From: Devosia sp.
GTDB taxonomy: Bacteria > Pseudomonadota > Alphaproteobacteria > Rhizobiales > Devosiaceae
DNA length: 64,000 nt
Assembly: GCF_048261455.1 (NCBI RefSeq)
Contig: NZ_JBLXGA010000002.1
Location: 170,648 to 234,647, forward strand
Direction: 5' to 3'
Shown here: in pieces, positions 2,787 through 59,770 of the stretch
Numbering within the stretch: position 1 is the first letter of the stretch
How the letters are laid out: each line of letters opens with the position of its first letter
Program-made: the position numbers and the translations under genes
The notes under the pieces: model-generated
Told to the model about the DNA's origin: nothing
Databases searched by the model: none
What the model saw: only the letters and a program-made list of their open reading frames with translations

Positions 2787-3668
2787 ATGCGGCTGCGGGT
2801 ATTGAATACGGTCTTGATGGCCAGTGTGTTTTCGGTGGGTGCGGCAAATGCCGCAGACCTGATCATCTATCCCGAGCCGATGGCCGATTATGCTGCCGAT
2901 TTCGTCGCGCCGGCCGTCTCCGGGCTGAACGGCAAGCTTGAACTCGATCTCGGCTATCTCACCGATCCGTCGAGCGCTGTCTTCCGCGCCGCGGGCTCGA
3001 TTTCGGCGCCGGTTGGCGACATGTTCGGCCTGCAGGGCGATCTCTCCGTGCAGTCCTATGAGGGTGACTGGAGTTTCGGTGGCGCAGTGCACGGCTTCAC
3101 CCGTGACCCCTCGAGCTATCTACTCGGCGTGACGGGTGGCTTCGTTACCAGTTCCGAGTCCACTCTCATGGCGATTGGTCCGGAAGCGGAGCTCTACTTG
3201 GGACAGATCAGTCTTGAGGCCTGGGCCGGTTGGGCTTCCATCGACTATACCGATGTGCTGCAGCCGGACCTAAGTGGCATGTTCGCTATCGCCGACCTCG
3301 CCTATTACGCGACGGATGACTGGCGCGTCAGCATCGGCGGTTCGTCGATCCTCGGCGAGAACTCGCTGCGGCTGGCCACCGAATACCAGTTTGCGCCGGA
3401 GATGGGCCTTGGGGTCAGCGGCGAAGCGCGCTGGCATGATACCGGCGCGGTTGCCGCCATGGTCGGGCTCAAGGGCTATATCGGCGAGCCCGGCAAGAGC
3501 CTGATCGATCGCCATCGTCAGGACGATCCGCCGAACCGGGCGCTCAGCCTGTTCTCGGGGGCGAGCGAACTGATCCATGATGGCGCGTACTGCGGCGAAG
3601 GCGAAAAGTACGTGCTAGTTGATACCGACACATACGACTGCGAGAGCATCTCAGACATACCGAAGTGA
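2787..3668 (+). CDS. Secreted beta-barrel OMP-like paralogue B
   Basis: The signal peptide MRLRVLNTVLMASVFSVGAANA is followed by ADLIIYPEP. An AAAGGAGAGG RBS precedes the start. It has the same core and hinge as A. Its unique 40-aa tail is SLFSGASELIHDGAYCGEGEKYVLVDTDTYDCESISDIPK. Confidence 0.85.
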   Translation: MRLRVLNTVLMASVFSVGAANAADLIIYPEPMADYAADFVAPAVSGLNGKLELDLGYLTDPSSAVFRAAGSISAPVGDMFGLQGDLSVQSYEGDWSFGGAVHGFTRDPSSYLLGVTGGFVTSSESTLMAIGPEAELYLGQISLEAWAGWASIDYTDVLQPDLSGMFAIADLAYYATDDWRVSIGGSSILGENSLRLATEYQFAPEMGLGVSGEARWHDTGAVAAMVGLKGYIGEPGKSLIDRHRQDDPPNRALSLFSGASELIHDGAYCGEGEKYVLVDTDTYDCESISDIPK

Positions 3669-3791: not shown

Positions 3792-5108
3792 TTATGTCTG
3801 GGACGGGCGCCACTCGTTGACATATTCCAGAAATTTACCGGCTGCCGTGGTTTCTATCCGCGGCAGCCGTATCATTTTGACTGCTGCGTCATCGAAAAAG
3901 ATCTCGCGAAAGGCCGCCTCGGCCTGATGTTCGTCGCCGAGCCGCGCGGTATCGCGCGGCACATATCGTATCTCGAAATCCAGAGGCCCCACCTGCGCGA
4001 TCTGCCACATTGTCGCGTCCAGCGCTTCCCGGGCAGAATCGGGCAGCATGCGGGCCGCCGCGCGACCATCGGGATGCGTGAAGATGGCCATGGACCGCCC
4101 GGAGATGGATTTCAGCAAGGGCAGGACACGCCCGCATGAACAGGGCGGGGCGAAGGCGGCAATGTCGCCCTGGTCGTAACGGATCAACGGCTGGATGGTG
4201 CTGACAAACGGCGTGATGACGACGCGCCCCTCCACACCGACCGGGCACGGGGCACCCTCGGCATCCACGATCTCCAGAAACAGGTTCTCTGCGCTGACAT
4301 GAAGTCCCGGGCCGTCGGGACAGGGATGCGCCATGTGACCGCCTTCCTTGGAACTGTAGTGTTCCAGGCAGGCAGCGCCGAACACCCGCCGGAAAGCCGC
4401 CTTATCGTCGGCACCGACGTGTTCCCCGTGGGCGAAAATGCTCTCGAGGCTGGCGAAAATACCGAGCCGCTCTGCCTCGAGCGCCAGAGTGTGAACATTC
4501 TTGGGCACAGAGGAATAGTAGGCGGTCGCTGTGCGCGACAGAAACTCAAGTGTCTCCTCGGAGGTGAAGCGCCGCGATATGGTGAAGGATCTGCCGGCCC
4601 GTGCGGCAGCATCCCAGGGCGGCCCCCAGATACCCGTCTGCTTGCCGTCGGGGTACAGGGCATCGGGATCGAAACCGCCGCGCGCGGTGTAGGTCTTTGA
4701 CCAGTCGACGCCATGCCAGCGCTGCGCCCGCCAACGGATGGCTGCGGTGGCGAGCATCATCAGCCGGTTGGTGGAAATCTTGATCGGCAGGCCGGTCGAG
4801 CCCGAGGATTCAATGGTGCTGTAATCCCCGTGGCCACGCGGCCGGTTGCGCGCCAGCATGGCGTCGCGGTGGTCGCGCATGTCGGTGCGGGTGACGATCG
4901 GGATCTCGTGCCAGCGGTCCCAGTCGATGCCGCCGCCGGGGCGGAAGACGGAATCGAGGCGGTTTTCGTAGAAGGGCACGTTGGCGCGGGCATGGCGCAG
5001 AAGCTGCTCGAGCTGCTCGCGCTGATAGGCGACGAGCTGCGACGGAGACCAGTACTGGCTCTCCATCAGCATCTCGAAGAACTGTTGCTGCAACTCGTCT
5101 TCTGTCAT
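3792..5108 (-). CDS. PaaK/CapK/F390-synthetase-like adenylate-forming ligase, copy 1
   Basis: It carries the ANL-type nucleotide motif IESSGSTGLPIK and the C-terminal domain motif PPCSCGR..LPLL..ISGR. The start at 5108 (MTEDELQQQ) was chosen by identity with copy 2. The track's upstream extension to 5273 is Arg/Gly-rich junk. Confidence 0.8.
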   Translation of the reverse strand: MTEDELQQQFFEMLMESQYWSPSQLVAYQREQLEQLLRHARANVPFYENRLDSVFRPGGGIDWDRWHEIPIVTRTDMRDHRDAMLARNRPRGHGDYSTIESSGSTGLPIKISTNRLMMLATAAIRWRAQRWHGVDWSKTYTARGGFDPDALYPDGKQTGIWGPPWDAAARAGRSFTISRRFTSEETLEFLSRTATAYYSSVPKNVHTLALEAERLGIFASLESIFAHGEHVGADDKAAFRRVFGAACLEHYSSKEGGHMAHPCPDGPGLHVSAENLFLEIVDAEGAPCPVGVEGRVVITPFVSTIQPLIRYDQGDIAAFAPPCSCGRVLPLLKSISGRSMAIFTHPDGRAAARMLPDSAREALDATMWQIAQVGPLDFEIRYVPRDTARLGDEHQAEAAFREIFFDDAAVKMIRLPRIETTAAGKFLEYVNEWRPSQT

Positions 5109-5258
5109 CTCCCGACTAAATCGCGGTCCGCCGCGGGGCGCAAGACGAGGCGGTGGCGCCGAGCCTCTATCACCAGTTCGAACGCATCGCCTCGATGATC
5201 TGCCGAGCCAAGGCGCCGCCCTCCTCGTGCGGACGATCCTGCCCGACCTCTGTATGGC

Positions 5259-5320
5259 GTTACCCGTTTGCAACAGCCGTATTTGAACACTCCCTTTCGT
5301 TGCCTATGGCGATTGTCACC
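5259..5320 (+). promoter_or_regulatory. Conserved bipartite upstream element of paralogue C (GTTACCCGTTTGCAAC-N36-GATTGTCACC)
   Basis: See 1351..1413. TTGAAC-N16-TATGGC lies between the boxes. The following ~55-nt 5' leader is nearly identical to that of paralogue B. Confidence 0.45.
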
Positions 5321-5369
5321 AAGCCCCATAAGTGTATTTTTCTGAAAGGGAAATTAAGGAGAGGCGGCG

Positions 5370-6224
5370 ATGCGGCTGCGGGTATTGAATACGGTCTTGA
5401 TGGCCAGTGTGTTTTCGGTGGGCGCGGCGAATGCCGCAGACCTCATCATCTATCCTGAACCGATGGCCGATTACGCCGCCGATTTCGCGGCGCCTGCAGT
5501 GTCCGGGGTGAACGGCAAACTGGAATTCGACCTCGGCTATCTCACCGACCCCTCGAGTGCGATTTTCCGCGCTGCGGGCTCGATTTCGGCGCCAGTGGGC
5601 GACATGTTCGGCCTGCAGGGCGATCTCTCCGTGCAGTCCTATGAGGGTGACTGGAGTTTCGGTGGCGCAGTGCACGCCTTCACCCGCGACCCGTCGAGCT
5701 ACCTGCTCGGTGTGACTGCCGGTGTGGTCTCGACAGGCGATTCCACCCTGTTCGCCGTCGGCCCCGAAGCTGAACTCTATCTCGGCCAGATCAGCATCGA
5801 GGCCTGGGCTGGTTACGCAGCGCTTGAATATGACGATGCCGGGCTGACCGATCTGAGCGGCGGGTTTGCGATAGCCGACCTGGCCTATTATGCGACGGAC
5901 GACTGGCGGGTGAGCATCGGCGGTTCGTCGATCCTCGGCGAGAACTCGCTGAACATTGCAACCGAATATCAGTTTGCCCCGGAAATGGGTCTGGCGCTCT
6001 CCGGCGAGGCCCGCTGGCACGACACCGGCGCCGTTGCCGCCATGGTGGGGCTCAAGGGCTATATCGGCGAGCCGGGCAAGAGCCTGATCGATCGCCACCG
6101 CCAGGACGACCCGCCGAACCGGGCACTCAACCTGTTCTCGGGTGCCAGCGGTCTGATCTCGGAAGAGTACGAGGAGCCAGAAGAAGATCTGAAAGATCCG
6201 CCGCAGGACCTCGAGCCCACTTAG
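5370..6224 (+). CDS. Secreted beta-barrel OMP-like paralogue C
   Basis: The signal peptide and first ~110 aa are almost identical to B. It has the same hinge. Its unique 31-aa acidic tail is NLFSGASGLISEEYEEPEEDLKDPPQDLEPT. Confidence 0.85.
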   Translation: MRLRVLNTVLMASVFSVGAANAADLIIYPEPMADYAADFAAPAVSGVNGKLEFDLGYLTDPSSAIFRAAGSISAPVGDMFGLQGDLSVQSYEGDWSFGGAVHAFTRDPSSYLLGVTAGVVSTGDSTLFAVGPEAELYLGQISIEAWAGYAALEYDDAGLTDLSGGFAIADLAYYATDDWRVSIGGSSILGENSLNIATEYQFAPEMGLALSGEARWHDTGAVAAMVGLKGYIGEPGKSLIDRHRQDDPPNRALNLFSGASGLISEEYEEPEEDLKDPPQDLEPT

Positions 6225-6255
6225 GCAATCGATTTTAGTCGTTGTTTGATCAACC

Positions 6256-7566
6256 TTAGCTCAACGATTGCCACTCGTTCACATATTGAAGATATTTTCC
6301 GGCTGCCGTGGGTTCGATCCGCGGCAGCCGGATGCATTTGACCCGCGCGTCTTCGAAGTAGATTGCCTTAAAGGCGGCTATCGCCGCCGTTTCATCGCCA
6401 GGTCTGTCTGGATCGTTCGGTACATAGCGGATGTCGAAATCGAGCGGCCCAACTTGCGCGACCTGCCAGATGGTCGCACCGAGACCGTTGCGGACGGCCT
6501 CGGGCAACATGCCGGATGCGCGACGACCGTCTGGATGAGTGAAGAACGCTGTTTGTCGGCCTGAAATAGCCGCCAGGAGGGGTAGTCCGCGCCCACAACT
6601 GCAGGGCGGCGCAAGAGCGGCGATGTCGCCCTGATCATAGCGAATGAGCGGCTGCGTGGTGCTGGTAAAAGGCGTAATGACCACGCGGCCTTCGACACCG
6701 ACGGCGCAAGGTTTCCCGTTCTCGTCAACGATCTCCAACAGGAGGTTCTCCGCGCCGACGTGCAGACCAGCGCTACTCGGGCAGGGGTGCGCCATCTGCC
6801 CGCCTTCCTTGGAGCTGTACTGTTCGAAACAGATCGCCCCGAATGCCCGCCGGTACGCCTGCTTGTCGTCCATTTCGACTTGCTCGCCATGCGTGATCAC
6901 CGCATGCAGTGGTAGATCCAACCCTTCCCGCTCAGCAGCAAGCGCGAGCACATGTGCCGGCTTCGGACCAGCGCGCAAATAGCTAGCGCCTACGCTGGAC
7001 ATGACGTCCACCATTTGCTCTGCAGTCAACTTGCGGTCCATCAGATATGCGGTGCCGAGTTGCGCTGAGCTGAGCCAAGGCGGGCCCCAAGGGCCGTCTG
7101 ATCGGTAGCCACGATCCTCCCGAACCTCACCGACATAGCGCGCGGCATACGTCTTGGACCAGTCAAAGTCGTGCCAGGTTTGTGCGCGATATCGAACAGC
7201 GCGCGTGGCCAGCATCATCAGACGGTTCGTGGTGATTTTGATCGGCAATCCCGTAGAGCCAGAGGATTCAATGGTGCTGTACTTCCCGTGCCCCGTCGGG
7301 ACGCGCTGCGCCAGCATGGCGTCGCGGTGGTCGCGCATGTCGGTGCGGGTGACGATCGGGATCTCGTGCCAGCGGTCCCAGTCGATGCCGCCGCCGGGGC
7401 GGAAGACGGAATCGAGGCGGTTTTCGTAGAAGGGCACGTTGGCGCGGGCATGGCGCAGAAGCTGCTCGAGCTGCTCGCGCTGATAGGCGACGAGCTGCGA
7501 CGGAGACCAGTACTGGCTCTCCATCAGCATCTCGAAGAACTGTTGCTGCAACTCGTCTTCAGTCAT
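6256..7566 (-). CDS. PaaK/CapK/F390-synthetase-like adenylate-forming ligase, copy 2
   Basis: This is a 436-aa ORF with the motifs IESSGSTGLPIK and PPCSCGRGLPLL. The first 86 aa are identical to copy 1. Confidence 0.8.
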   Translation of the reverse strand: MTEDELQQQFFEMLMESQYWSPSQLVAYQREQLEQLLRHARANVPFYENRLDSVFRPGGGIDWDRWHEIPIVTRTDMRDHRDAMLAQRVPTGHGKYSTIESSGSTGLPIKITTNRLMMLATRAVRYRAQTWHDFDWSKTYAARYVGEVREDRGYRSDGPWGPPWLSSAQLGTAYLMDRKLTAEQMVDVMSSVGASYLRAGPKPAHVLALAAEREGLDLPLHAVITHGEQVEMDDKQAYRRAFGAICFEQYSSKEGGQMAHPCPSSAGLHVGAENLLLEIVDENGKPCAVGVEGRVVITPFTSTTQPLIRYDQGDIAALAPPCSCGRGLPLLAAISGRQTAFFTHPDGRRASGMLPEAVRNGLGATIWQVAQVGPLDFDIRYVPNDPDRPGDETAAIAAFKAIYFEDARVKCIRLPRIEPTAAGKYLQYVNEWQSLS

Positions 7567-7768
7567 CCCTCGACTAAATCGCGGTCCGCCGCGCGAGGCA
7601 AGAGACGAGGCGGCAAGTCACGGATTGCCGCTTTGCTGCGCCAGCCGGCCGCGAGTCACATTTCCGCAACTCCCGCGGCGAAGGATTTCGTCACATCTGC
7701 CAGAGGCTTGCCGCTTAAGCAGAGATATGTACGTAATTTCTCCAGACTATGTTTACTGGGGGCTTTAC

Positions 7769-8623
7769 ATGCGACTGCGTATCCTCGGCGTCGCGCTGCT
7801 CGGCACCGCCTTGTGCGGAACCGGCGTGCAGGCGGCCGATCTCATCATCTATCCGGAGCCAATGGCGGATTATGCCGCCGATTTCGTCGCGCCGGCCGTG
7901 TCCGGTGTAAACGGCAAGCTGGAACTCGATCTCGGCTATCTCACCGATCCGTCGAGCGCCATCTTCCGCGCTGCGGGCTCGATTTCGGCACCAGTGGGCG
8001 ACATGTTCGGCCTGCAGGGCGACCTGTCCTTGCAGTCCGAGGACGGCGACTGGTCGGTTGGCGGCGCGGTTCACGGGTTCACCCGCGACCCATCCAGCTA
8101 TCTGCTGGGCATTACCGCCGGCGTGCTGCGCAACGACGACGCCATGCTGACGGCGATCGGCCCCGAAGCTGAACTCTATCTTGGCCAGATCAGTCTTGAG
8201 GCCTGGGCCGGCTGGGCCATGGTCGACTACGACGTTGCCATCCCCGACGAGAACGGCATGTTCGCCATCGCCGACCTCGCCTGGTACGCGACGGACGACT
8301 GGCGGCTGAGCCTCGGTGGGGCCTCGATCCTAGGTGAGAATTCGCTGCGGCTCGCAACCGAATACCAGTTTGCGCCGGAGATGGGGCTATCCGTGTCGGC
8401 CGAGAGCCGCTTTCATGACAGTGGCGCGGTCGCCGCCATGGTTGGGCTCAAGGGCTATTTCGGCGAGCCGGGCAAGAGCCTGATCGCCCGCCATCGCCAG
8501 GATGACCCGCCGAACCGGGCGCTCAGCCTGGCGGGTGGCGCTGGCGATTTGCTCGAGATCCAGTCGGACCAGATTGTCGTCCCGCCGCCCCCGCCCCCGG
8601 AGCAGTCGGAGCTGCCGGACTAA
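7769..8623 (+). CDS. Secreted beta-barrel OMP-like paralogue D
   Basis: The start was set at the ATG at 7769 (MRLRILGVALLGTALCGTGVQA followed by ADLIIYPEP) by alignment with A-C. The hinge is PGKSLIARHRQDDPPNRAL. Its unique 32-aa tail contains PPPPPP. Confidence 0.8.
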   Translation: MRLRILGVALLGTALCGTGVQAADLIIYPEPMADYAADFVAPAVSGVNGKLELDLGYLTDPSSAIFRAAGSISAPVGDMFGLQGDLSLQSEDGDWSVGGAVHGFTRDPSSYLLGITAGVLRNDDAMLTAIGPEAELYLGQISLEAWAGWAMVDYDVAIPDENGMFAIADLAWYATDDWRLSLGGASILGENSLRLATEYQFAPEMGLSVSAESRFHDSGAVAAMVGLKGYFGEPGKSLIARHRQDDPPNRALSLAGGAGDLLEIQSDQIVVPPPPPPEQSELPD

Positions 8624-8780: not shown

Positions 8781-9794
8781 TTAGGGCCGCGGGCGGGTGT
8801 CGCGGGCTGCGGCGCGGCGCGCCTGCTTGAGCTGGCGATTGTGCGCGGCACGGGCCGCGGCGTCATCGCCCAGATGCGCTTCGCCCCGTTCTCGCGCCAG
8901 CTGCATCTGGCGTTCGCGCTCCAGCGCGCGGGCGGTGTTGCCTGTGTCGTGACAGGTCTGGCAGATGCCGTCCTGCAGCGCATCGGGCGCCATCGGGGTA
9001 CGGCAGGCGCGGCAGAGTTCGGCCTGCCCCTCCTGGAGCCCATGGGTTACCGAGACGCGCTCGTCGAAAACGAAGCACTCGCCAGCGAAGCGGCTTTCGG
9101 CTTCCGGCACGGTTTCGAGATATTTCAGGATGCCGCCCTGCAAGTGAAACACCTCGGGGAAGCCCTGCTCCAGCATATAGGCCGAGGCCTTTTCGCAGCG
9201 GATGCCGCCGGTGCAGAACATCGCGACCTTCGGCGTTTTCTTCGGGTCGAGCTTCGCCACATAGTCCTTGAACTCGGTGAAGCTCGCCGTGTGCGGATCG
9301 GCGGCGCGGGCGAAACTGCCGAGCGCCACCTCGTAGTCGTTGCGGGTATCGATCACCAGCACGTCGTTGCGGTCGATCAGCGCGTTCCAGTCCTTTGGCG
9401 CGACATAGGTGCCGACGCGGCGTGAGGGGTCGGCCTGGGGCGCGCGCAGCGTGACGATCTCGGGTTTCAGCCGCACCTTCATGCGGTGAAAGGGCATCTC
9501 GTCCGACCACGAATATTTGGCCTCGGCCCCGGCCAGCCGGCCGGCCCACAGCCGGTCGGTCTCGAACCAGGCGGCCAGCGCGTCGATCGCTTCGGGCGTC
9601 CCCGCCACGGTGCCGTTGATGCCTTCCGGCGCGAGAATGAAAGTGCCGCGAATGCCGCGGGCGCAACAGAACCGGGCCAGTTCCGGCTGCAGCGCGGCGC
9701 AATCGGGCAGCGCGGCGAACCTGTAGAGGGCCAGAACCTTGAAGGGCTTTGGCGTTTCGGGCAGGGTGGCGGAACTGTCAACGGGCGCGATCAT
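8781..9794 (-). CDS. trhO: Rhodanese-domain tRNA uridine(34) hydroxylase (YceA/TrhO family)
   Basis: It shows the family-typical N-terminus KVLALYRF, the rhodanese active-site loop FCTGGIRCEKA and a C-terminal Cys cluster. Confidence 0.8.
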   Translation of the reverse strand: MIAPVDSSATLPETPKPFKVLALYRFAALPDCAALQPELARFCCARGIRGTFILAPEGINGTVAGTPEAIDALAAWFETDRLWAGRLAGAEAKYSWSDEMPFHRMKVRLKPEIVTLRAPQADPSRRVGTYVAPKDWNALIDRNDVLVIDTRNDYEVALGSFARAADPHTASFTEFKDYVAKLDPKKTPKVAMFCTGGIRCEKASAYMLEQGFPEVFHLQGGILKYLETVPEAESRFAGECFVFDERVSVTHGLQEGQAELCRACRTPMAPDALQDGICQTCHDTGNTARALERERQMQLARERGEAHLGDDAAARAAHNRQLKQARRAAARDTRPRP

Positions 9795-9955
9795 GATGGG
9801 CCGGATGTATCATCCGGCTGGCATGACGGGCAACTTCGATACATCGGAACCGTTTGGAACCAGTCACGGGGCTGGTGGCGGGTGGCATTGCCTGCCCGTC
9901 GCGCCATCCGATCGCAAGCTGCAAAGCACAGACCAAAGAGGGAGGCCAACGCGCC

Positions 9956-52982: not shown

Positions 52983-53188
52983 CGATATCTCCTCGCGGCG
53001 CCGCGCCGGCCGGCGACAGATCAACGTCATTGCCGTGGCAAATCTGGGGCGGGCGGCGCACCAAAGCCACACCTCGCCCCTCCCCGCCGGCACCGACCCG
53101 GCCACGCCGCCATGCGCAGAACGCAGGCACGTGTTTACCGCGCGTAAACCACCTTTGCGACCCGTCAGAACCCTGCTATCAGCCGCAC

Positions 53189-54994
<1,806 letters not shown>

Positions 54995-55145
54995 GCTCCC
55001 GTCCTTTTCTGTAATTTGTCGGCGCGAAGGCTCTTTGCGACTTCACGGCTGTCGACTCGAGGGCTTTCTACCTATGTAATGGAGAATTCCACCTAGCGCT
55101 TAGAACATAATGGAACTAGCTTCTCCCTAAGGGGGAGCTTGGGCC

Positions 55146-56183
55146 ATGGATGCTCTTAATTCTGGAAAGGACACTGAGCGGAAACGACTATCACCGACTG
55201 ACTATTGGAATCCAATTGCCGAGTGTGAACGTCGCATCGATGTGCTGTCCGATGCACTCCACGATTTCTGGCAACCTGATCCTGCCCCGTCGGAGCCCCC
55301 CTCGGCGGAGCCATCCGGATCGCCCCCGCCGAGTGACTTCTGGTACATTGGCGCATCTCCTGTTGCCTCTGACGTGCCCCCAGTTGACTGGGGAGCGCAG
55401 TCTGCCCTTCCTTGGTTTGACCCAGACTTATCTAGCAACCCCTTTATCCTTGATGATGCACCTCTTGGTCGTTCATTGGCCGAGCGAAGAAGCCGCTGGC
55501 TCGTACAGCTGCTAGATATTCCGGAACAGCGCCGACGTCAGCGTTTGGCTTCCTTCTTTCATGAAGTCTTTGCGGCCTTTCCCCTTCAGCAGACCTTTAA
55601 AGCACTTTCAGACATGGCCGTTTCGGGTGTTGATGCGGATTCAATGCGAAACGGCTGCGCGTTCCGCATCGAGTTTCTGGATACCCCAAAGCTAGCAGCG
55701 CGACGGTCCTTCCGGGCGCGTCAACCTGCGCCATATCATGACCCTGCGGCGATGTTGTCATGGAAGCGCGCGGTACGATTGGCGGAGCTCTGCAACGGCG
55801 GAGAGCTCGTTGATGCAATTGATGAAGACTGGCATCGCGAATGGCTGGCGCTGTCTTTCGGGGAGCCGCTGTACTGGTCGTATTTAGACTTTATCGAGTG
55901 GCGATTGTTCTCCGCGAGCCTCGGCTATCTCGAGCCTGAGCTTCAAAGTTATAGAACTGAGTGGACGGATGTCCGACTGCCTTCACTTTCTATATCAGCC
56001 AGACGTTTTTCCCATGCCATTGGGTTGCGATGGGGACCAACCGATGTGATTGGCACCTGTCAAGAATCAAGAAGTCACTTTGATTATGTTAGGAGAGGAC
56101 GTGGAAACCTTAAAGCCGGTACTGGACTGCTGGGTGAAAGAAACCTCCACAGGTCATTTGGGTCGCGTAGTACAACATCTTAG
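55146..56183 (+). CDS. Hypothetical protein (345 aa), first gene of the low-GC island
   Basis: An AAGGGGGAG RBS precedes the start. The N-terminal ~110 aa are Pro/Ser/Asp-rich with W-containing short motifs. The C-terminal ~220 aa look helical. I recognise no motif. The last ~33 codons overlap the helicase ORF. Confidence 0.6.
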   Translation: MDALNSGKDTERKRLSPTDYWNPIAECERRIDVLSDALHDFWQPDPAPSEPPSAEPSGSPPPSDFWYIGASPVASDVPPVDWGAQSALPWFDPDLSSNPFILDDAPLGRSLAERRSRWLVQLLDIPEQRRRQRLASFFHEVFAAFPLQQTFKALSDMAVSGVDADSMRNGCAFRIEFLDTPKLAARRSFRARQPAPYHDPAAMLSWKRAVRLAELCNGGELVDAIDEDWHREWLALSFGEPLYWSYLDFIEWRLFSASLGYLEPELQSYRTEWTDVRLPSLSISARRFSHAIGLRWGPTDVIGTCQESRSHFDYVRRGRGNLKAGTGLLGERNLHRSFGSRSTTS

Positions 56184-58920
56184 TGACAATCAGGTTCGCG
56201 TGGAGTTTGGACCTGATCTGCCACACCGCGCTCTAGGCTTGGACGACTTCTCTTGCGGGATACAGCCCGGATTTATCGTGCAGGATGTTCCCCTGTCAGC
56301 ATCTCGCAAGACGTTAGGGGTAGGCACCGCAATAGCAGTGCGAACCATCTCTTCCCTTGAACAAGTATCTGTCCAGTTTCACGCGACCGGCGACACACGT
56401 TGGATTCCATATGAGCGGCTTGCGCGAATAATGGATCCGAAACTCCAATATGTTCGCGGTGAAATGAAATTTCGAGACAGCGGCGAGCGGACAGCCCTCA
56501 ACCTGATGGCACATGCTCTTCGCACTTGGAACGAGTCGACGGGAGCTCTGGATCGCCTAGACGTCGACCCACTTCCGCACCAAATCACACTTGTCCATCG
56601 CATACTTAGTTCCGGTAATACAAACTGGCTGATAGCCGATGACGTTGGCCTCGGAAAGACGATTGAGGTCGGATTACTCCTGGGAGCGCTCGAGCGAAGG
56701 CAGAACATCCGCCGTATACTGATTATTGTTCCGTCTGGCCTGACCCGTCAGTGGAAAGATGAAATGCTGACGAAGTTTAATCGGCTATTTCGCATATTTG
56801 GACGAGATTTCGACGTCGAACGGCCGAATGAGTGGGGCCTCTACGAGAGGGTTATCGTATCCCTGGACCTCGCAAAGCCCCGAACAAATGATGACGACGG
56901 CAGTGATTTCTCTACTCGGTTTGGCTCGATACTCGCAGCTGGTAAATGGGACGTTGTGATCTTTGATGAGGCACATCGGCTGTCTCGGGATGCAACCGGC
57001 CGGACGACACTACGGTACAAGTTAGCGAAAGCGCTTCGAGAGCGCTCGGATTCAGTTTTGCTTCTGACGGGAACACCGCACCAAGGAGATGTTGGGCGCT
57101 TTCAAAACCTACTTAAGCTTGCGAGGCCGGATCTCGGAGAAGCAATTGAGGACATTGAGGGGGACCCGTCTGTTGTTGCAGATATCGTTCTGCGCAACCG
57201 CAAGATTGACGTGGTCGATGCCGAGGGTCACTTCATCTTCCAAGGCGTTCTGGTTCGCCGCGCCGAAATTCCCAATAGCCCGGAGACGATCGAACTCGAG
57301 CGAAGATTGAGCCTTTACCTTCGGCGTGGCTACCGTGCTGGTGACAGCATTGGTGGGCGTTCCGGTAGAGCAATCGGCTTTGTCATGACGATTTACCGCA
57401 AGCTAGCTTCTTCTTCGGTATGGGCGCTTTTGGTAGCCATGACCAAGCGGAAGCAACGCCTGCTTGGGGAAATACCGAGCGGTCCTTCGACAATAGAACT
57501 CGACGTAGAGGCTCAATTCGAGATTGAGGAAGACAACGACGACCTGGCGGACGCCAACATTGAGGGGGCGACGGGTCTCTTCTTTGAAGACGAACTAAGA
57601 GACCTAGACGCCGTACTCTCGCAAGCCCGAGCGAGCATTTCGGCCGACCGCAAAATTCTTGAGCTTGAAAAGCTGATAGCCGACCTCGTCGTAGCTCAGC
57701 ACAGAAAGGTGCTCATATTCACAGAGTATCGTGCAACGCAATCTTATATACAGGACCGCATAGAAAGAGAACTTGATCGGAGATCAGCATTAATACATGG
57801 CGGGATGACCGTGGACGAAAAACAAGCCGCGATCTCCGATTTTGACGCCAATACACAAATACTTATTTCTACTGAAGCAGGAGGGGAAGGCCTCAACTTA
57901 CAACGGCACTGTCACGTACTAGTGAATTACGACCTCCCATGGAATCCGGCACGGTTGCAGCAGAGGATAGGTCGGCTTTACAGATATGGCCAGAAAGAGA
58001 AGGTTGTTGTTATTAATATTGCTTCTAAAGATACTATCGACAACCAGGTACTAACTACAGTTCTCGAGCGACTAGAGGCCGTCGTCAGGCAGATGGGACC
58101 CGTAAGTGCCGAGTACGATGAACGGCACCATTCGGAAGTTCTGGGAGATCTTCTCGACCGTCTAGACATTAACGATCTACTCGAGGAAGCTAGAAGTGGC
58201 GGCGTTGAACGAACGGCCCAGAGAGTTGATGATGCCATTCAACGAGCACGCGATTCCAAGCGTCTTCAAGATGACATCCTAGCAAACATTTCAACTCTAG
58301 ACGGAAACAGCTGGCAACGGCTAGGAGCCTTTACTACGCGCGACCTTGCATTATTTATTAAGCGTGCTGCGGCATTGCTAAATATAGAAGTGAATGAGTT
58401 TGACAATGTGGAGCGTTTTGATCTTCGATTACCTGAGCGGCTTCGCGGACGCTTCTCTGAGTTCGCCAACCGGACTTCCGTTGAGGTGCGCACAAATAGG
58501 ACAGGTTCATCCGGCCGTATATTGCTAGATTTTTCATCTACCTTTGTTTCCTATCTCGTTACGTCAGTAACCCGCCCAGAATTCGGAGGTGGGTTCGGCG
58601 CAATCGCAGCGGGGGAGGAGCACCTACTGATTGCGGCAATGCTCATTCACTTTCAGAATGAGCAAGGCCAGCATCGGGGAGCCGATTTGGTGGCCGCGTC
58701 ACGGGATCAGAGTGGGCACATCGAAGTGGACAACTCACGTCTTCGAACTCTTTTTGAGAGAGTTCAACGTACTGGGTTGATTGAGGCCAGTGATCCAAAG
58801 GATCGAATGGATCGGATTGAGGCAGTTCTCGACCGCATCGAGACTCGGGTCGCAGCGCTTTCGGAAATTACAAGGCACGCTGGCGGCATCTTCCCAGTAG
58901 GTATCGTACAACTGGACTAG
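56086..58920 (+). CDS. RapA/HepA-like SNF2-family ATPase
   Basis: Two N-terminal Tudor/SH3-like modules precede the ATPase core. The core carries PHQ, ADDVGLGKT (motif I), VIFDEAHRL (II), LLLTGTP (III), STEAGGEGLNLQ (V) and QQRIGRLYRYGQ (VI). A ~300-aa C-domain follows. The size and order match E. coli RapA. The start is ambiguous among TTG 56050, ATG 56086 and GTG 56101. Confidence 0.85.
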   Translation: MLGEDVETLKPVLDCWVKETSTGHLGRVVQHLSDNQVRVEFGPDLPHRALGLDDFSCGIQPGFIVQDVPLSASRKTLGVGTAIAVRTISSLEQVSVQFHATGDTRWIPYERLARIMDPKLQYVRGEMKFRDSGERTALNLMAHALRTWNESTGALDRLDVDPLPHQITLVHRILSSGNTNWLIADDVGLGKTIEVGLLLGALERRQNIRRILIIVPSGLTRQWKDEMLTKFNRLFRIFGRDFDVERPNEWGLYERVIVSLDLAKPRTNDDDGSDFSTRFGSILAAGKWDVVIFDEAHRLSRDATGRTTLRYKLAKALRERSDSVLLLTGTPHQGDVGRFQNLLKLARPDLGEAIEDIEGDPSVVADIVLRNRKIDVVDAEGHFIFQGVLVRRAEIPNSPETIELERRLSLYLRRGYRAGDSIGGRSGRAIGFVMTIYRKLASSSVWALLVAMTKRKQRLLGEIPSGPSTIELDVEAQFEIEEDNDDLADANIEGATGLFFEDELRDLDAVLSQARASISADRKILELEKLIADLVVAQHRKVLIFTEYRATQSYIQDRIERELDRRSALIHGGMTVDEKQAAISDFDANTQILISTEAGGEGLNLQRHCHVLVNYDLPWNPARLQQRIGRLYRYGQKEKVVVINIASKDTIDNQVLTTVLERLEAVVRQMGPVSAEYDERHHSEVLGDLLDRLDINDLLEEARSGGVERTAQRVDDAIQRARDSKRLQDDILANISTLDGNSWQRLGAFTTRDLALFIKRAAALLNIEVNEFDNVERFDLRLPERLRGRFSEFANRTSVEVRTNRTGSSGRILLDFSSTFVSYLVTSVTRPEFGGGFGAIAAGEEHLLIAAMLIHFQNEQGQHRGADLVAASRDQSGHIEVDNSRLRTLFERVQRTGLIEASDPKDRMDRIEAVLDRIETRVAALSEITRHAGGIFPVGIVQLD

Positions 58921-58945
58921 GTTCCGCAGTCAGACGAGAGCTTAT

Positions 58946-59000
58946 CCCCACCCCACTCCCCCACTCCCCCACTCCCCCACTCCCCCACTCCCCCACCCCT
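58946..59000. repeat. Octanucleotide tandem repeat (CCCCCACT), about 6 units
   Basis: The sequence reads cccca ccccact, then cccccact four times, then cccccac ccct. The minus strand carries eight G4-5 tracts. Confidence 0.95.
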
Positions 59001-59038
59001 ATCCTCGCCCCAGCACAATCCCTCGCGAGGACCCAACC

Positions 59039-59770
59039 ATGACCCCACCTCTCATCCCCGAAACCGCCCGCGCGCATGAGGCGCTCACTCCCCGCGTCAC
59101 GGCCCTGCTGAAACAGGTCGAGCGCGCGGCCGCCAAGACCCCCGAGGCGCCGATCCCCGTCGCGACGCGGGATGTGGCGCAGGTGCTGTTTCGCGAGGCG
59201 CGGAAAATTCTCGGGCGCGAGGTGAAACGCTGGGCGGGGCGGGCGTTCGGCTCGCTCGGCGGGTTGAGCGTGGGGCTCGGGCAGCTGGCCGCCGGGCTCG
59301 AGGCCTTCGAGGCGGCGCATTTGGGCTATTCGCAAAAAGCCAAATGCGTGGTGTGGCACGTCGCGGGGCCGGTGCTGCCGGTGACGCGGCTCAAGCCGCC
59401 CGGGGTCGCGACCGGGCCGGGGGCGGCGGCAGACGACAAGGCCAGCGCGGCGCGTCAGCAACTGACCCGGCTGGTCATGGCGCGCTATGCCGCCGGGTAT
59501 GACCAGGGTTATCGCCACGCCAAGGAGGGCCTGCCGCCCGCGGCCGAATATGCCGAGCGGGTGTGGAACAGCCTGCTGCGGCACGGCGGCGACGACAAGG
59601 CGACGCGGAAGCGCGAGTTGAAGCGGCTCTATGGCACGGCGACGCCGCCATCGCACCTGATGCCCATCGGCTCGGAGCCCGGCGAATGGCAGCGGATCCA
59701 GCGCGCCCGCTGGGAGGCCCGCAAGGCGGCGCTCAGCGCCAATGAAGCGGAGGCCGGTGCGGGTGACTAA
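59039..59770 (+). CDS. Hypothetical protein (243 aa)
   Basis: A GAGGA RBS precedes the start. The gene is high-GC with a codon-like third-position bias. I recognise no motif. Confidence 0.55.
   Translation: MTPPLIPETARAHEALTPRVTALLKQVERAAAKTPEAPIPVATRDVAQVLFREARKILGREVKRWAGRAFGSLGGLSVGLGQLAAGLEAFEAAHLGYSQKAKCVVWHVAGPVLPVTRLKPPGVATGPGAAADDKASAARQQLTRLVMARYAAGYDQGYRHAKEGLPPAAEYAERVWNSLLRHGGDDKATRKRELKRLYGTATPPSHLMPIGSEPGEWQRIQRARWEARKAALSANEAEAGAGD

Follow-up and report, generated by a model that had tools for sequence, protein, structure and literature searches.

Organization of the Locus

The window, a 64-kb stretch of Devosia DNA, contains a low-GC island at positions 54995-58920, in which two overlapping genes (gene 1 and gene 2) lie on the forward strand between lepA and a conserved gene for a 243-aa protein. 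Mean GC in the island is 0.529 (range 0.49-0.58 in 500-nt windows), compared with 0.649 (sd 0.033) in the remainder of the 64-kb window, where 500-nt GC windows reveal no further sustained low-GC stretch. The original prediction had described a sharp fall in GC past the lepA stop codon at 54994 and a return to high GC beyond a repeat. Both observations hold, with 0.53 inside against 0.65 outside and a GC of 0.72 regained by position 59000, and the underlying line counts of 26/60, 28/60, and 39/60 G+C were exact on recounting. GC3 is 0.51 in both gene 1 and gene 2 and 0.85 in lepA.

The lepA gene (elongation factor 4; 53180-54994, forward strand) matches the Pfam families GTP_EFTU, EFG_C, and LepA_C, ends with TAG at 54992-54994, and shares 84-86% nucleotide identity with lepA of other Devosia loci. 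It is a core gene outside the module and bounds a variable slot on the left. The left junction of the island falls directly past its stop codon, where a low-GC leader begins (54995-55145, forward strand), as defined by the GC drop and by comparison with a related locus (L001) that has the short blocks CCACCTAGCGC and ACTAGCTTC in common with it. The leader contains a ribosome-binding site, GGGGGAG; neither a consensus sigma-70 promoter nor an Rfam match was found on its strand.

The right border of the slot is a conserved element (58941-59013, forward strand) composed of CTTATCCCC, a C-rich tract, and then TATCCTCGCC. Within it, the unit CCCCACTC is repeated 5.8 times in tandem at 58951-58996 with 100% matching, which is a local expansion of the border element. 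The 243-aa gene lies immediately downstream (59039-59770, forward strand) and has a high GC of 0.725. It is named only from Devosia, and database profile searches returned no family match for it. Its homologues flank all slot variants, and it is the right flank of the slot, likewise outside the module. No flanking or terminal repeats and no integrase were found at the island. As originally predicted, searches of the island and its flanks with Pfam, PADLOC, and NCBIfam also found no recognizable nuclease, methylase, or integrase.

The Partner Protein Encoded by Gene 1

Gene 1 (forward strand) runs from an ATG at 55146 to a TAG at 56183, exactly as first called, and its 345-aa product has no match in Pfam, NCBIfam, PADLOC, PHROG, or PDB. 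It is nevertheless a genuine, conserved protein: close homologues number 7, and a profile search recovers 175 clusters (50% identity).

The N-terminus carries a cluster of short aromatic-acidic motifs (55200-55424, forward strand), namely DYWNP (55200-55214, residue 19), DFWQP (55263-55277, residue 40), DFW within DFWYIG (55335-55343, residue 64), DWG within VDWG (55386-55394, residue 80), and LPWFDP (55407-55424, residue 88). Repeated motifs of this kind had been noticed in the sequence, and they are conserved in homologues: invariant columns of an alignment of 7 sequences (A1) include D40, W42, P44, D64, W66, D81, W82, and L88-D92, and most closer members of the family have 1-3 copies of D[FY]WxP. 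In the structure model, pLDDT is <50 for residues 1-83, and the N-terminus is predicted to be disordered.

The best-conserved block is a core at approximately residues 105-265 (55458-55940, forward strand), which starts with AERRSRWLVQLLDIPEQRRR and is all that could be detected of the protein in distant members (profile positions 80-275). It is modelled as helices, residues 110-180 reaching a pLDDT of about 75-90, in line with the earlier description of a helical C-terminal part lacking a recognized motif. The whole model is poor (pLDDT 51), and no fold match was obtained with it. A search for a catalytic motif or enzymatic domain found none, and the only fusions among 48 long members of the family are to ankyrin (4) and SAM (1) domains. 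Gene 1 apparently encodes a fast-evolving, non-enzymatic adaptor or sensor, where "non-enzymatic" reflects absence of evidence, since the model is poor and lacks a fold match.

The SNF2 ATPase Encoded by Gene 2

Gene 2 (56101-58920, forward strand) encodes a 939-aa SNF2 ATPase with a RapA fold and with matches to the Pfam families SNF2-rel_dom and Helicase_C. The earlier call of an SNF2 gene ending at 58920 was correct, but its start at about 56086 has been replaced. The most likely start, judging from the sequence, is the GTG at 56101, which lies 6 nt past AGGAG and forms column 1 of the homologue alignment; the ATG at 56086 is less likely. With the start at GTG 56101, gene 1 and gene 2 overlap by 83 nt.

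Two N-terminal beta-barrel (Tudor/SH3-like) modules occupy residues 1-110 (56101-56430, forward strand), with strands at residues 11-52 and 59-109 in the AlphaFold model (pLDDT about 83-93) and strong conservation in 52 homologues. The SNF2 core (residues 127-665; 56479-58095, forward strand) includes DDVGLGKT, DEAH, TGTP, and QQRIGRLYRYGQ. The full motif set recognized at first reading is present and is invariant or nearly so across the 52 homologues (alignment A2). Gene 2 is an intact SNF2 ATPase, in the favoured reading an active one, and by homology probably a dsDNA translocase. The C-terminal region (residues 666-939; 58096-58917, forward strand) contains a helical linker and alpha+beta domains, with no conserved PD-(D/E)xK motif or D...(D/E)xK triad in A2.

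RapA recycles RNA polymerase, and the original prediction had likened the two Tudor/SH3-like modules and ~300-aa C-domain of gene 2 to the RapA/HepA plan. The AlphaFold model (pLDDT 83.6) bears this out. Its best Foldseek match is RapA (6bog, E 1.7e-34, compared with about 1e-19 for other SNF2 cores), in an alignment of ~1100 columns that takes in the C-terminal region, and the predicted fold corresponds to the whole length of E. coli RapA, both N-terminal barrels included. Among solved structures, RapA/HepA (6bog, 8t0l, 4s20) is also the closest by sequence (E 1e-34); it has the same order of two N-terminal beta barrels, SNF2 core, and C-terminal alpha+beta domains, and is of similar size (968 aa). 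However, identity to RapA in the structural alignment is about 17%, and gene 2 differs further in its foreign composition, its polymorphic locus, and its obligate upstream partner gene; rapA is not known to have such a partner.

By HMM score, gene 2 is nearest to the DrmD/BrxHII defence helicases. It passes no curated family cut-off, and the DrmD and BrxHII models outscore the RapA model in PADLOC and NCBIfam. The top NCBIfam match is DrmD (318 bits over residues 160-721; cut-off 610), whereas the RapA equivalog scores 173 bits (cut-off 576) and neither RapA_C nor Tudor_RapA is matched in Pfam. In PADLOC the top match is the BrxHI|BrxHII model (329 bits), and scores for DrmD and HmaA are 281 and 268 bits. 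Related SNF2 proteins also occur in PHROG families, for example phrog_23807 at 250 bits.

A Variable Slot in Devosia Chromosomes

Checked for polymorphism, the interval between lepA and the 243-aa gene was found to hold other cargo in related Devosia. Two loci (L017 and L018) carry the anti-phage system DarTG, with DarT and DarG both over the NCBIfam equivalog cut-offs; L016 carries dCTP-deaminase-like, Nmad2, and UDG-like genes; and L015 carries a 1302-aa gene without known function. All of this cargo is low in GC and ends at a common motif, the right border element, which closes every cargo in the window, L007, L015, L016, and L017, and in part in L001. Only five slot variants were seen, all occupied, with no empty site among them.

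The interval is best explained as a "defence hotspot" with variable content in the Devosia chromosome, and the adjacency of the pair to lepA is a hotspot effect with no functional tie to lepA. Hotspots flanked by core genes have been described in Pseudomonas aeruginosa (core defence hotspots; PMC10250203) and E. coli (defence-island hotspots; PMC10121019), and the Devosia interval resembles them in its fixed position between conserved genes, its strain-variable low-GC defence cargo, and the lack of an evident integrase or terminal repeats. No mention of it was found in the defence-hotspot literature retrieved. The suggestion of a horizontally acquired cassette gains support from the variable low-GC cargo of the slot and from lowered GC and GC3 of the gene pair in 7/7 loci compared, and the 3.9-kb segment is horizontally acquired cargo.

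Conservation and Distribution of the Gene Pair

In every inspected locus, a relative of gene 1 lies directly upstream of, or overlaps, a relative of the helicase, although the match of the Deinococcus plasmid partner to the gene 1 family is marginal (E 2e-3). The pair is found in Devosia, Mesorhizobium, Bradyrhizobium, Sphingomonas, and Rhodopseudomonas, on the Nitrosococcus plasmid pNHAL01, and in metagenome loci. The pairing of a partner with a RapA-like motor, proposed from this locus, holds in the loci inspected. Overlaps of 4-83 nt between the two genes indicate translational coupling, and the pair is a translationally coupled module of two genes that is conserved as a unit. Loci with helicases at 71-80% identity share only 40-53% in gene 1, and this faster divergence of gene 1 resembles an arms-race signature. 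The distribution is patchy: among representatives of 185,579 species, only one other genome has the close gene 1 family.

These data bear on the explanation that gene 2 is an ordinary, vertically inherited rapA orthologue with gene 1 as an unrelated neighbor. The best PDB match is RapA and the pair adjoins a housekeeping gene, but the score below the RapA equivalog cut-off, the contrast in GC3 with lepA, the other cargo filling the slot in related Devosia, the rarity of the close gene 1 family, and the linkage of gene 1 to the helicase across distant taxa leave this explanation with hardly any probability. A housekeeping rapA is effectively refuted by a RapA equivalog score of 173 bits where 576 are required, by the polymorphic locus, and by the foreign GC3.

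Neighboring genes vary among loci and are often of the defence type. The Bradyrhizobium pair lies within the region of a conjugative element, where genes for a TrwC relaxase, a coupling protein, a type-ISP-like enzyme, and an HKD+Snf2 candidate also occur; the Nitrosococcus plasmid pair adjoins Dsr1, an HNH endonuclease, and a restriction endonuclease; the Sphingomonas pair adjoins a PLD-like gene and a transposase; and the Rhodopseudomonas pair lies among housekeeping genes. The conjugative region, the occurrence on plasmids, the low GC at every locus, and the related SNF2 proteins of phage families could indicate cargo of a selfish or mobile element that benefits the element and not the host, with an anti-defence or establishment role in transfer or an addiction-like one, left in a recombination hotspot. 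This is rather unlikely, as mobility genes are lacking within 8-10 kb of most loci, including the one described here, flanking repeats and an integrase are absent, no relatives were found in viral contigs, and the informative neighbors are genes for defence, not for transfer.

Comparison With Known Defence Systems

The helicases that match gene 2 best belong to multi-gene systems. DrmD of class 1 DISARM, which has several PADLOC models at 130-281 bits, is likewise a defence-associated SNF2 protein without a fused nuclease. However, gene 2 scores under the DrmD equivalog cut-off, DrmA, DrmB, DrmC, and DrmMI are absent from the window flanks and related loci, and none of the DISARM subunits is related to gene 1.

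BrxHII of type-3 BREX and the BREX-related (BR) helicases share with gene 2 a RapA-like plan, which comprises a Tudor domain, the SNF2 core, a degenerate REase-like domain, and an alpha+beta C-terminal domain; the equivalent C-terminal parts of RapA and BrxHII are described as an inactive REase fold and a RapA-specific domain (Rakesh and Krishnan, 2026; PMC12839542). RapA-type architecture is already known from defence helicases (PMC12839542). BrxHII is also of the same length class (about 940 aa). Differences are that a single Tudor domain is reported for BrxHII (PMC12839542), whereas gene 2 has two N-terminal barrels, that the BrxC/DUF499 ATPase, PglX-type methyltransferase, PglZ, BrxA, and BrxB are absent nearby, and that two genes, one a novel partner, make up the present module.

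HmaA of the Halomonas meridiana Hma system is an SNF2 helicase with a C-terminal PD-(D/E)xK nickase, has been shown by experiment to act against T4, and is encoded at an insertion hotspot for defence genes (PMC11232893). Its match to gene 2 is limited to the helicase core, the whole gene 2 protein has 939 aa against 1176 positions in the HmaA model, the C-terminal region of gene 2 lacks a conserved nuclease motif, and the HmaB methylase and HmaC ATPase are absent nearby.

The strong partial matches to DrmD, BrxHII, and HmaA, together with the usual action of such helicases in multi-gene systems (PMC12839542; PMC11232893), raise the question of whether a larger known system, be it DISARM, type-3 BREX, one related to BREX, or Hma, has been reduced to this pair. 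As a remnant or minimal offshoot, the pair would have lost the methylase, the ATPase, and other subunits and would be at most partly functional here. This is improbable. The two-gene layout occurs without a DISARM, BREX, or Hma partner in all inspected loci, across at least six named genera, both genes are intact, with helicase motifs invariant across 52 homologues, and gene 1 matches no subunit of these systems. The earlier statement that no system could be named also still applies, given that gene 1 has no PADLOC, NCBIfam, or Pfam model and that no paper describing the pair of gene 1 and the helicase was found.

Proposed Function

Two functions were weighed for the module, defence and transcription remodelling. 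For the latter, the tandem Tudor-like domains of the ATPase would bind RNA polymerase, gene 1 would be a regulatory adaptor that recruits or restrains the ATPase, and the module would aid the host or carrier element in recycling or displacing RNA polymerase under stress. RapA as the closest solved structure by both sequence and full-length fold, the two barrels shared with RapA rather than the one reported for BrxHII (PMC12839542), the absence of a nuclease or toxin domain, and the housekeeping context in Rhodopseudomonas agree with such a role. It is unlikely all the same, in view of the low RapA equivalog score without Pfam RapA_C or Tudor_RapA, the higher scores of defence-helicase profiles, the patchy distribution and persistently foreign composition, the occurrence of DarTG and further variable cargo in the same slot, and the defence genes that adjoin several loci. 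Context favours defence.

The low-GC segment is most likely foreign cargo in a Devosia hotspot that encodes a two-gene anti-phage or anti-plasmid system, a reading with a probability of roughly 0.6. Location and homology point to this function, as the slot holds the anti-phage system DarTG in a relative, the best profile matches are defence helicases rather than RapA, and several loci adjoin defence genes. On the other side, Pfam, PADLOC, and NCBIfam searches found no nuclease, toxin, or other recognizable effector. The setting of the Rhodopseudomonas pair, the lack of a phage link in viral contigs, and the lack of a PADLOC model for gene 1 also count against defence.

For a defence system, a mechanism may be proposed in which the conserved helical core of gene 1 probably docks on the helicase, while its variable N-terminus would recognize an invader-derived or invader-altered protein, or keep the motor in check. 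The N-terminal parts concerned would be the short motifs or, among distant members, an ankyrin or SAM domain. Once licensed, the ATPase would itself be the effector: it would translocate on the invading DNA and strip off or stall the proteins bound there, for example complexes engaged in transcription or replication, much as RapA acts on RNA polymerase. The module is a candidate defence system of an undescribed type, carried in a variable hotspot of Devosia chromosomes.

Composition and Gene Content of the Island

The original prediction was of a horizontally acquired two-gene cassette beside lepA, a candidate for defence or transcription remodelling. lepA occupies 53180-54994 on the forward strand, with its TAG stop at 54992-54994, and the shift in composition begins at the first base after this codon. 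Measured in 500-nt windows, mean GC is 0.529 (range 0.49-0.58) inside 54995-58920, against 0.649 (sd 0.033) in the remainder of the 64-kb window, where there is no second sustained GC dip. The G+C counts given earlier for single lines of the island (26/60 and 28/60) and of lepA (39/60) proved exact on recount. The predicted return to high GC after the repeat also held, with GC recovered to 0.72 by position 59000; this repeat, at 58951-58996, consists of 5.8 perfect tandem copies of CCCCACTC. Two ORFs fill the island, gene 1 (55146-56183; 345 aa) and the SNF2 helicase gene 2 (56101-58920), and both have a GC3 of 0.51 as compared with 0.85 for lepA. Together with the variable slot in which it lies, this composition upholds the horizontal acquisition of the module. 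A search of the island against Rfam gave nothing at E ≤ 1, and consensus promoters and terminators are no more numerous than expected from shuffled sequence.

The start of gene 2 is best placed at GTG 56101, since an AGGAG lies 6 nt upstream and this codon falls in the first column when 52 homologues are aligned, with the N-terminal residues P6, G21, and V23 nearly invariant among them. The ATG at 56086, which had been proposed as the start, lies 15 nt upstream of the favoured codon. With GTG 56101 as the start, gene 1 and gene 2 overlap by 83 nt, and as homologous loci have overlaps of 4-49 nt, this arrangement points to translational coupling. The exact-match database protein for gene 2, which is NCBI-sourced, is only 906 aa long and starts ~33 codons downstream, a choice presumably made to keep clear of gene 1. 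Starting there would remove window positions 56101-56199 and with them part of the first N-terminal barrel. The helicase of the Devosia locus L001 is likewise entered as 824 aa in an NCBI/UniRef-sourced entry.

Gene 2 Has the Fold of RapA

Gene 2 carries the Pfam domains SNF2-rel_dom and Helicase_C. Its SNF2 motifs DDVGLGKT, DEAH, TGTP, and QQRIGRLYRYGQ, all listed in the original prediction, are invariant or nearly so in the 52 homologues, and by this conservation the ATPase is judged to be intact. The nearest solved structure by sequence is RapA (E 1e-34). An AlphaFold model built on the 52 homologues (pLDDT 83.6, pTM 0.74) features two beta barrels at the N-terminus (residues 11-52 and 59-109), followed by the SNF2 core, a helical linker, and C-terminal alpha+beta domains. 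The best PDB matches of this model in Foldseek are full-length RapA structures (E 1.7e-34, ~1100 aligned columns), compared with about 1e-19 for other SNF2 cores. The two barrels, the C-terminal domains, and the full-length fold match thus confirm the RapA architecture first read from the sequence.

Despite this, gene 2 differs from RapA itself. The model predicts that gene 2 shares the tandem Tudor-like N-terminus, the SNF2 core, and the RapA-type C-terminal domains, but the sequence does not match Pfam RapA_C or Tudor_RapA, and it scores 173 bits, in two partial stretches, against the 576-bit cut-off of the RapA equivalog NF003426. RapA, a housekeeping ATPase that binds RNA polymerase and promotes its recycling, would also be expected as a vertically inherited core gene that shares the composition of its host and keeps a stable gene order, whereas gene 2 has a GC3 of 0.51 against 0.85 for lepA and sits in a polymorphic slot that holds DarTG or other cargo in related genomes. 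The possibility that gene 2 is an ordinary, vertically inherited rapA, for which its fold would speak, is therefore effectively refuted.

Judged by sequence profiles, the best matches of gene 2 are defence helicases. In PADLOC the BrxHI|BrxHII model scores highest (329 bits), followed by DrmD (281) and HmaA (268), and in NCBIfam DrmD exceeds RapA. Since its scores stay below the cut-offs, gene 2 belongs to none of the curated BrxHII, DrmD, HmaA, or RapA families. The RapA fold would also suit a pair that serves as a non-immune accessory of transcription remodelling; given these defence-helicase matches and the shared slot with DarTG, we regard such a role as unlikely.

Comparison With Known SNF2-Based Systems

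BrxHII of type-3 BREX and the BREX-related helicases have a RapA-like plan with one Tudor domain, instead of the two of RapA (PMC12839542). Gene 2 conforms to their plan of Tudor domain, SNF2 core, inactive REase, and alpha+beta C-terminal region, but has two N-terminal barrels where one Tudor domain is reported for BrxHII (PMC12839542). None of the partners expected of these systems (the BrxC or DUF499 ATPase, the PglX-type methyltransferase, and, for BREX itself, PglZ) is encoded in the window flanks or in any related locus. With respect to DISARM, gene 2 falls under both DrmD equivalog cut-offs (NF038317, 318 of 610 bits; NF038318, 175 of 950 bits), and neither the window flanks nor the related loci contain DrmA (a DUF1998-associated helicase), DrmB, the methyltransferase, or the DrmC that accompanies them in some systems. 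The match to HmaA covers the helicase core only (best stretch, positions 97-399 of 1176). HmaA has an active C-terminal PD-(D/E)xK nuclease, whereas no conserved D...(D/E)xK is seen in the C-terminal region of gene 2 among the 52 homologues; Hma further comprises the HmaB methylase and HmaC ATPase, and the window has no methylase or ATPase neighbours. The likeness to ZorD of type I Zorya is weaker, at 62-96 bits in stretches on the Helicase_C side. ZorD joins SNF2 to an Mrr-like nuclease and acts with ZorA, ZorB, and ZorC, but no ZorABC genes lie near gene 2.

Within the window, the module is flanked by housekeeping genes (lepA, DUF218, an outer-membrane protein, FKBP, a hydroxylase, and an epimerase). 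The profile scores of gene 2 could be read as the trace of a DISARM, BREX, or Hma system of which the pair is a remnant; with the partner genes of these systems missing, and with gene 1 conserved beside the helicase in other genomes, this is improbable.

Gene 1 Defines a New Partner Family

Gene 1 has no match in Pfam, PADLOC, NCBIfam, PHROGs, or PDB sequences, and a profile search against PDB sequences gave no fold. It is nevertheless judged a real gene on the strength of its homologues. Seven proteins of 40-53% identity can be aligned over its entire length, with many invariant columns, and a profile search of 1.84 billion representatives returned 175 clusters (at 50% identity) at E ≤ 0.001, 65 of them at E ≤ 1e-10. 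The concern that gene 1 might lack conserved homologues is thereby removed.

The protein has three parts. The N-terminus (~100 residues) is predicted to be disordered and contains DYWNP, DFWQP, DFW, DWG, and LPWFDP; these aromatic-acidic motifs, all but DYWNP noticed in the first reading, are invariant columns among close homologues, and most of the closer family members carry one to three copies of D[FY]WxP. A helical core follows at residues ~105-265, starting with AERRSRWLVQLLDIPEQRRR, and is the only part recognisable by profile search in distant members. The C-terminal tail is disordered and variable. An AlphaFold model of gene 1 has a mean pLDDT of 51 (about 75-90 in the core), and with this poor model Foldseek returned only noise (E of 2 or more). 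Fusions to Pfam domains in 48 long family members are limited to ankyrin repeats (four proteins) and SAM (one protein), both of which are protein-interaction modules. The PADLOC candidate PDC-M72A was rejected as an identity for gene 1, as the four distant members that match it do so via their ankyrin repeats and not via the family core. Nothing in the protein points to an enzyme, and this absence of enzymatic signs suggests that gene 1 is non-enzymatic. It also diverges far faster than the helicase in the same loci (40-53% vs. 71-80% identity).

The Pair Is a Conserved Two-Gene Module

Co-occurrence of gene 1 with a RapA-like gene, which had been proposed as a check, was borne out among the ~14 loci inspected. 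A helicase of ~945 aa lies directly downstream in every locus with a close gene-1 homologue, namely those of Devosia (L001) and Mesorhizobium (L002) and the metagenome loci L003, L005, L007, L008, and the P0004 contigs. A search from the helicase led to full-length relatives (44-80% identity) in Bradyrhizobium, Rhodopseudomonas, Sphingomonas, and Rhodospirillaceae. In all three of the helicase-led loci fetched, from Bradyrhizobium, Sphingomonas, and Rhodopseudomonas, an unannotated gene upstream of the helicase, abutting or overlapping it, shows homology to gene 1. The three upstream genes, of 333, 394, and 360 aa, give blastp E values of 2e-29, 1e-6, and 7e-13 and iterated-profile E values of 7e-90, 1.5e-37, and 5.5e-66. 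Helicases of ~40% identity are also encoded on two plasmids. On the Nitrosococcus halophilus plasmid pNHAL01, the 524-aa gene upstream of the helicase matches the iterated gene-1 profile (E 5.5e-18), and on a Deinococcus plasmid the upstream 1315-aa gene gives only a marginal match (E 2e-3). Gene 1 and the helicase together form a two-gene module that is conserved and translationally coupled.

Members of the close gene-1 family are rare, with one further genome among representatives of 185,579 species and two metagenome loci. The surroundings of the pair vary. The Bradyrhizobium pair is part of a conjugative-element region, where its neighbours are a type-ISP-like enzyme and an HKD+Snf2 protein with a match to a PADLOC candidate. 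Genes for Dsr1, an HNH endonuclease, and a restriction endonuclease are found close to the pair on pNHAL01, and a PLD-like gene and a transposase in Sphingomonas, whereas in Rhodopseudomonas the pair is set among housekeeping genes. The conjugative and plasmid settings would be compatible with a pair that serves a mobile element. In the Devosia window no integrase flanks the module, and no relatives occur in the viral contigs of IMG/VR; service to a mobile element is accordingly quite unlikely. A tblastn search with gene 1 against PLSDB found none of the close family on plasmids.

In the Mesorhizobium-type loci, a small secreted Cys-rich protein (113-123 aa) is encoded next after the helicase (L002 14095-15127; L003 7604-7945). 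This protein, which the Mesorhizobium locus has as two tandem paralogues, is unrelated to the gene that flanks the module in Devosia.

The Slot Between lepA and a Conserved Devosia Gene

The close family lies directly after lepA in four loci and 2 kb downstream of it in a fifth, and has other left neighbours in three (the L007, L008, and P0004 contigs). A functional or site-specific link to lepA was considered and rejected; these other neighbours, together with the unrelated cargo at the same place in Devosia, indicate that the adjacency is a hotspot effect. To the right of the module is a 243-aa gene (59039-59770; GC 0.725) that has no family in Pfam, NCBIfam, or PHROGs and for whose homologues Devosia is the only organism named in the database. 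This gene was considered as a third module gene, being homologous in the window, L001, and L007, but its high GC and its position beside all slot variants, including DarTG, identify it as a core flank.

Polymorphism at the lepA locus, which had been proposed as a check, was found, as related Devosia genomes carry different cargo between lepA and the 243-aa gene. The window and L001 have gene 1 and the SNF2 helicase. The related loci L017 and L018 have a YkuD-domain gene with DarT and DarG, both of which exceed their NCBIfam equivalog cut-offs. The chromosomal slot occupied by the module here is thus taken up by a validated defence system in other genomes. All cargos are low in GC (0.53-0.59), and their flanks range from 0.62 to 0.73. 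Anti-phage systems in general are located in variable islands, alternating or together with validated systems, and the pair shares this habit. The slot fits the pattern of “core defence hotspots” in other bacteria (PMC10250203; PMC10121019).

Two further variants hold other genes. The cargo of L015, a Devosia-like contig, is a 1302-aa protein on the minus strand (3954-7862), whose gene overlaps the lepA stop region at its 3′ end; it has no Pfam or NCBIfam match and a weak one to PADLOC PDC-S73 (E 3e-4), and may be another single-gene defence candidate. L016 carries a DUF2283 gene and, at 5146-7935, genes for Nmad2, a UDG-like protein, an unknown protein of 162 aa, and a dCTP-deaminase-like protein that scores 74 bits where the cut-off is 92.8. 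The latter genes, which have no PADLOC match, form a cluster of the nucleotide-modification or nucleotide-depletion type. In L016, moreover, 199 nt of the lepA 3′ end (2675-2873) recur as an exact direct duplication at 3458-3656, ~585 nt past the lepA stop. This duplicate codes for a 56-aa LepA_C fragment and encloses the DUF2283 gene. It looks like an insertion or recombination scar at the end of lepA, or a MAG assembly artefact; no lepA-like DNA is present within the slot of the window.

The exact right end of every cargo is marked by a conserved CTTATCCCC, a C-rich tract, and then TATCCTC, ~40-100 nt upstream of the core gene. This element spans 58941-59013 in the window, where the 8-mer repeat has expanded within it, and 4960-5015 in L007, and is also found in L015, L016, and L017. 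The element may serve the core gene as promoter or 5′ UTR, or may mark a border of recombination. L007 keeps the pair, the border element, and the core gene with an FKBP gene instead of lepA on the left, so the right border is the more constant anchor. The left border is not fixed, as in L001 lepA and the module are set apart by ~550 nt of non-coding DNA rich in GC and palindromes (9328-9880), whereas in the window the module follows directly on the lepA stop. Flanking direct or inverted repeats in the window are limited to short matches at chance level, and the nearest tRNA genes are 27 kb and 33 kb from the module.

A Candidate Defence Function

The module is horizontally acquired, and it joins a new partner family to a RapA-fold SNF2 ATPase that is intact. 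On its sequence and genomic setting, we estimate a probability of about 60% that the candidate module is an anti-phage or anti-plasmid system. In such a system, gene 1 would act as sensor or adaptor, with its conserved core docked on the helicase and its variable N-terminus, through the multivalent aromatic-acidic motifs, either contacting the trigger or restraining the motor. The ATPase would be the effector, remodelling or stripping protein-DNA complexes on invading DNA. A more specific and speculative form, which we consider doubtful, is nuclease-free immunity that works through the transcription machinery. Here the motor, with the tandem-Tudor architecture through which RapA binds RNA polymerase, would use ATP to evict or stall host-hijacked or phage-encoded RNA polymerase on invading DNA, the D[FY]WxP motifs of gene 1 would be the tether or release switch, and DNA would be neither cut nor modified.

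SNF2 motors in defence, and the RapA-like architecture of such motors, are already known. Neither the partner family nor the two-gene arrangement by itself appears in PADLOC v2, NCBIfam 2026, or Pfam, and no paper was found that names or describes the pair. If protective, the pair would be a compact addition to the SNF2-based defences that include DISARM, type-3 BREX and its relatives, Hma, and Zorya. To our knowledge, the contribution of the motor in DISARM and BREX is still largely unknown, and a motor with one non-enzymatic partner would offer a minimal setting for the role and licensing of a RapA-fold translocase in immunity. Protection would also give a first function to a family of ~175 clusters (at 50% identity) for which the databases offer no model, and RapA-derived, nuclease-free immunity, if true, would be a new mode with a new sensor family. 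The Devosia slot itself, whose C-rich right border is sharply conserved, is a usable hotspot that could be mined for further systems in these little-explored alphaproteobacteria of soil and rhizosphere.
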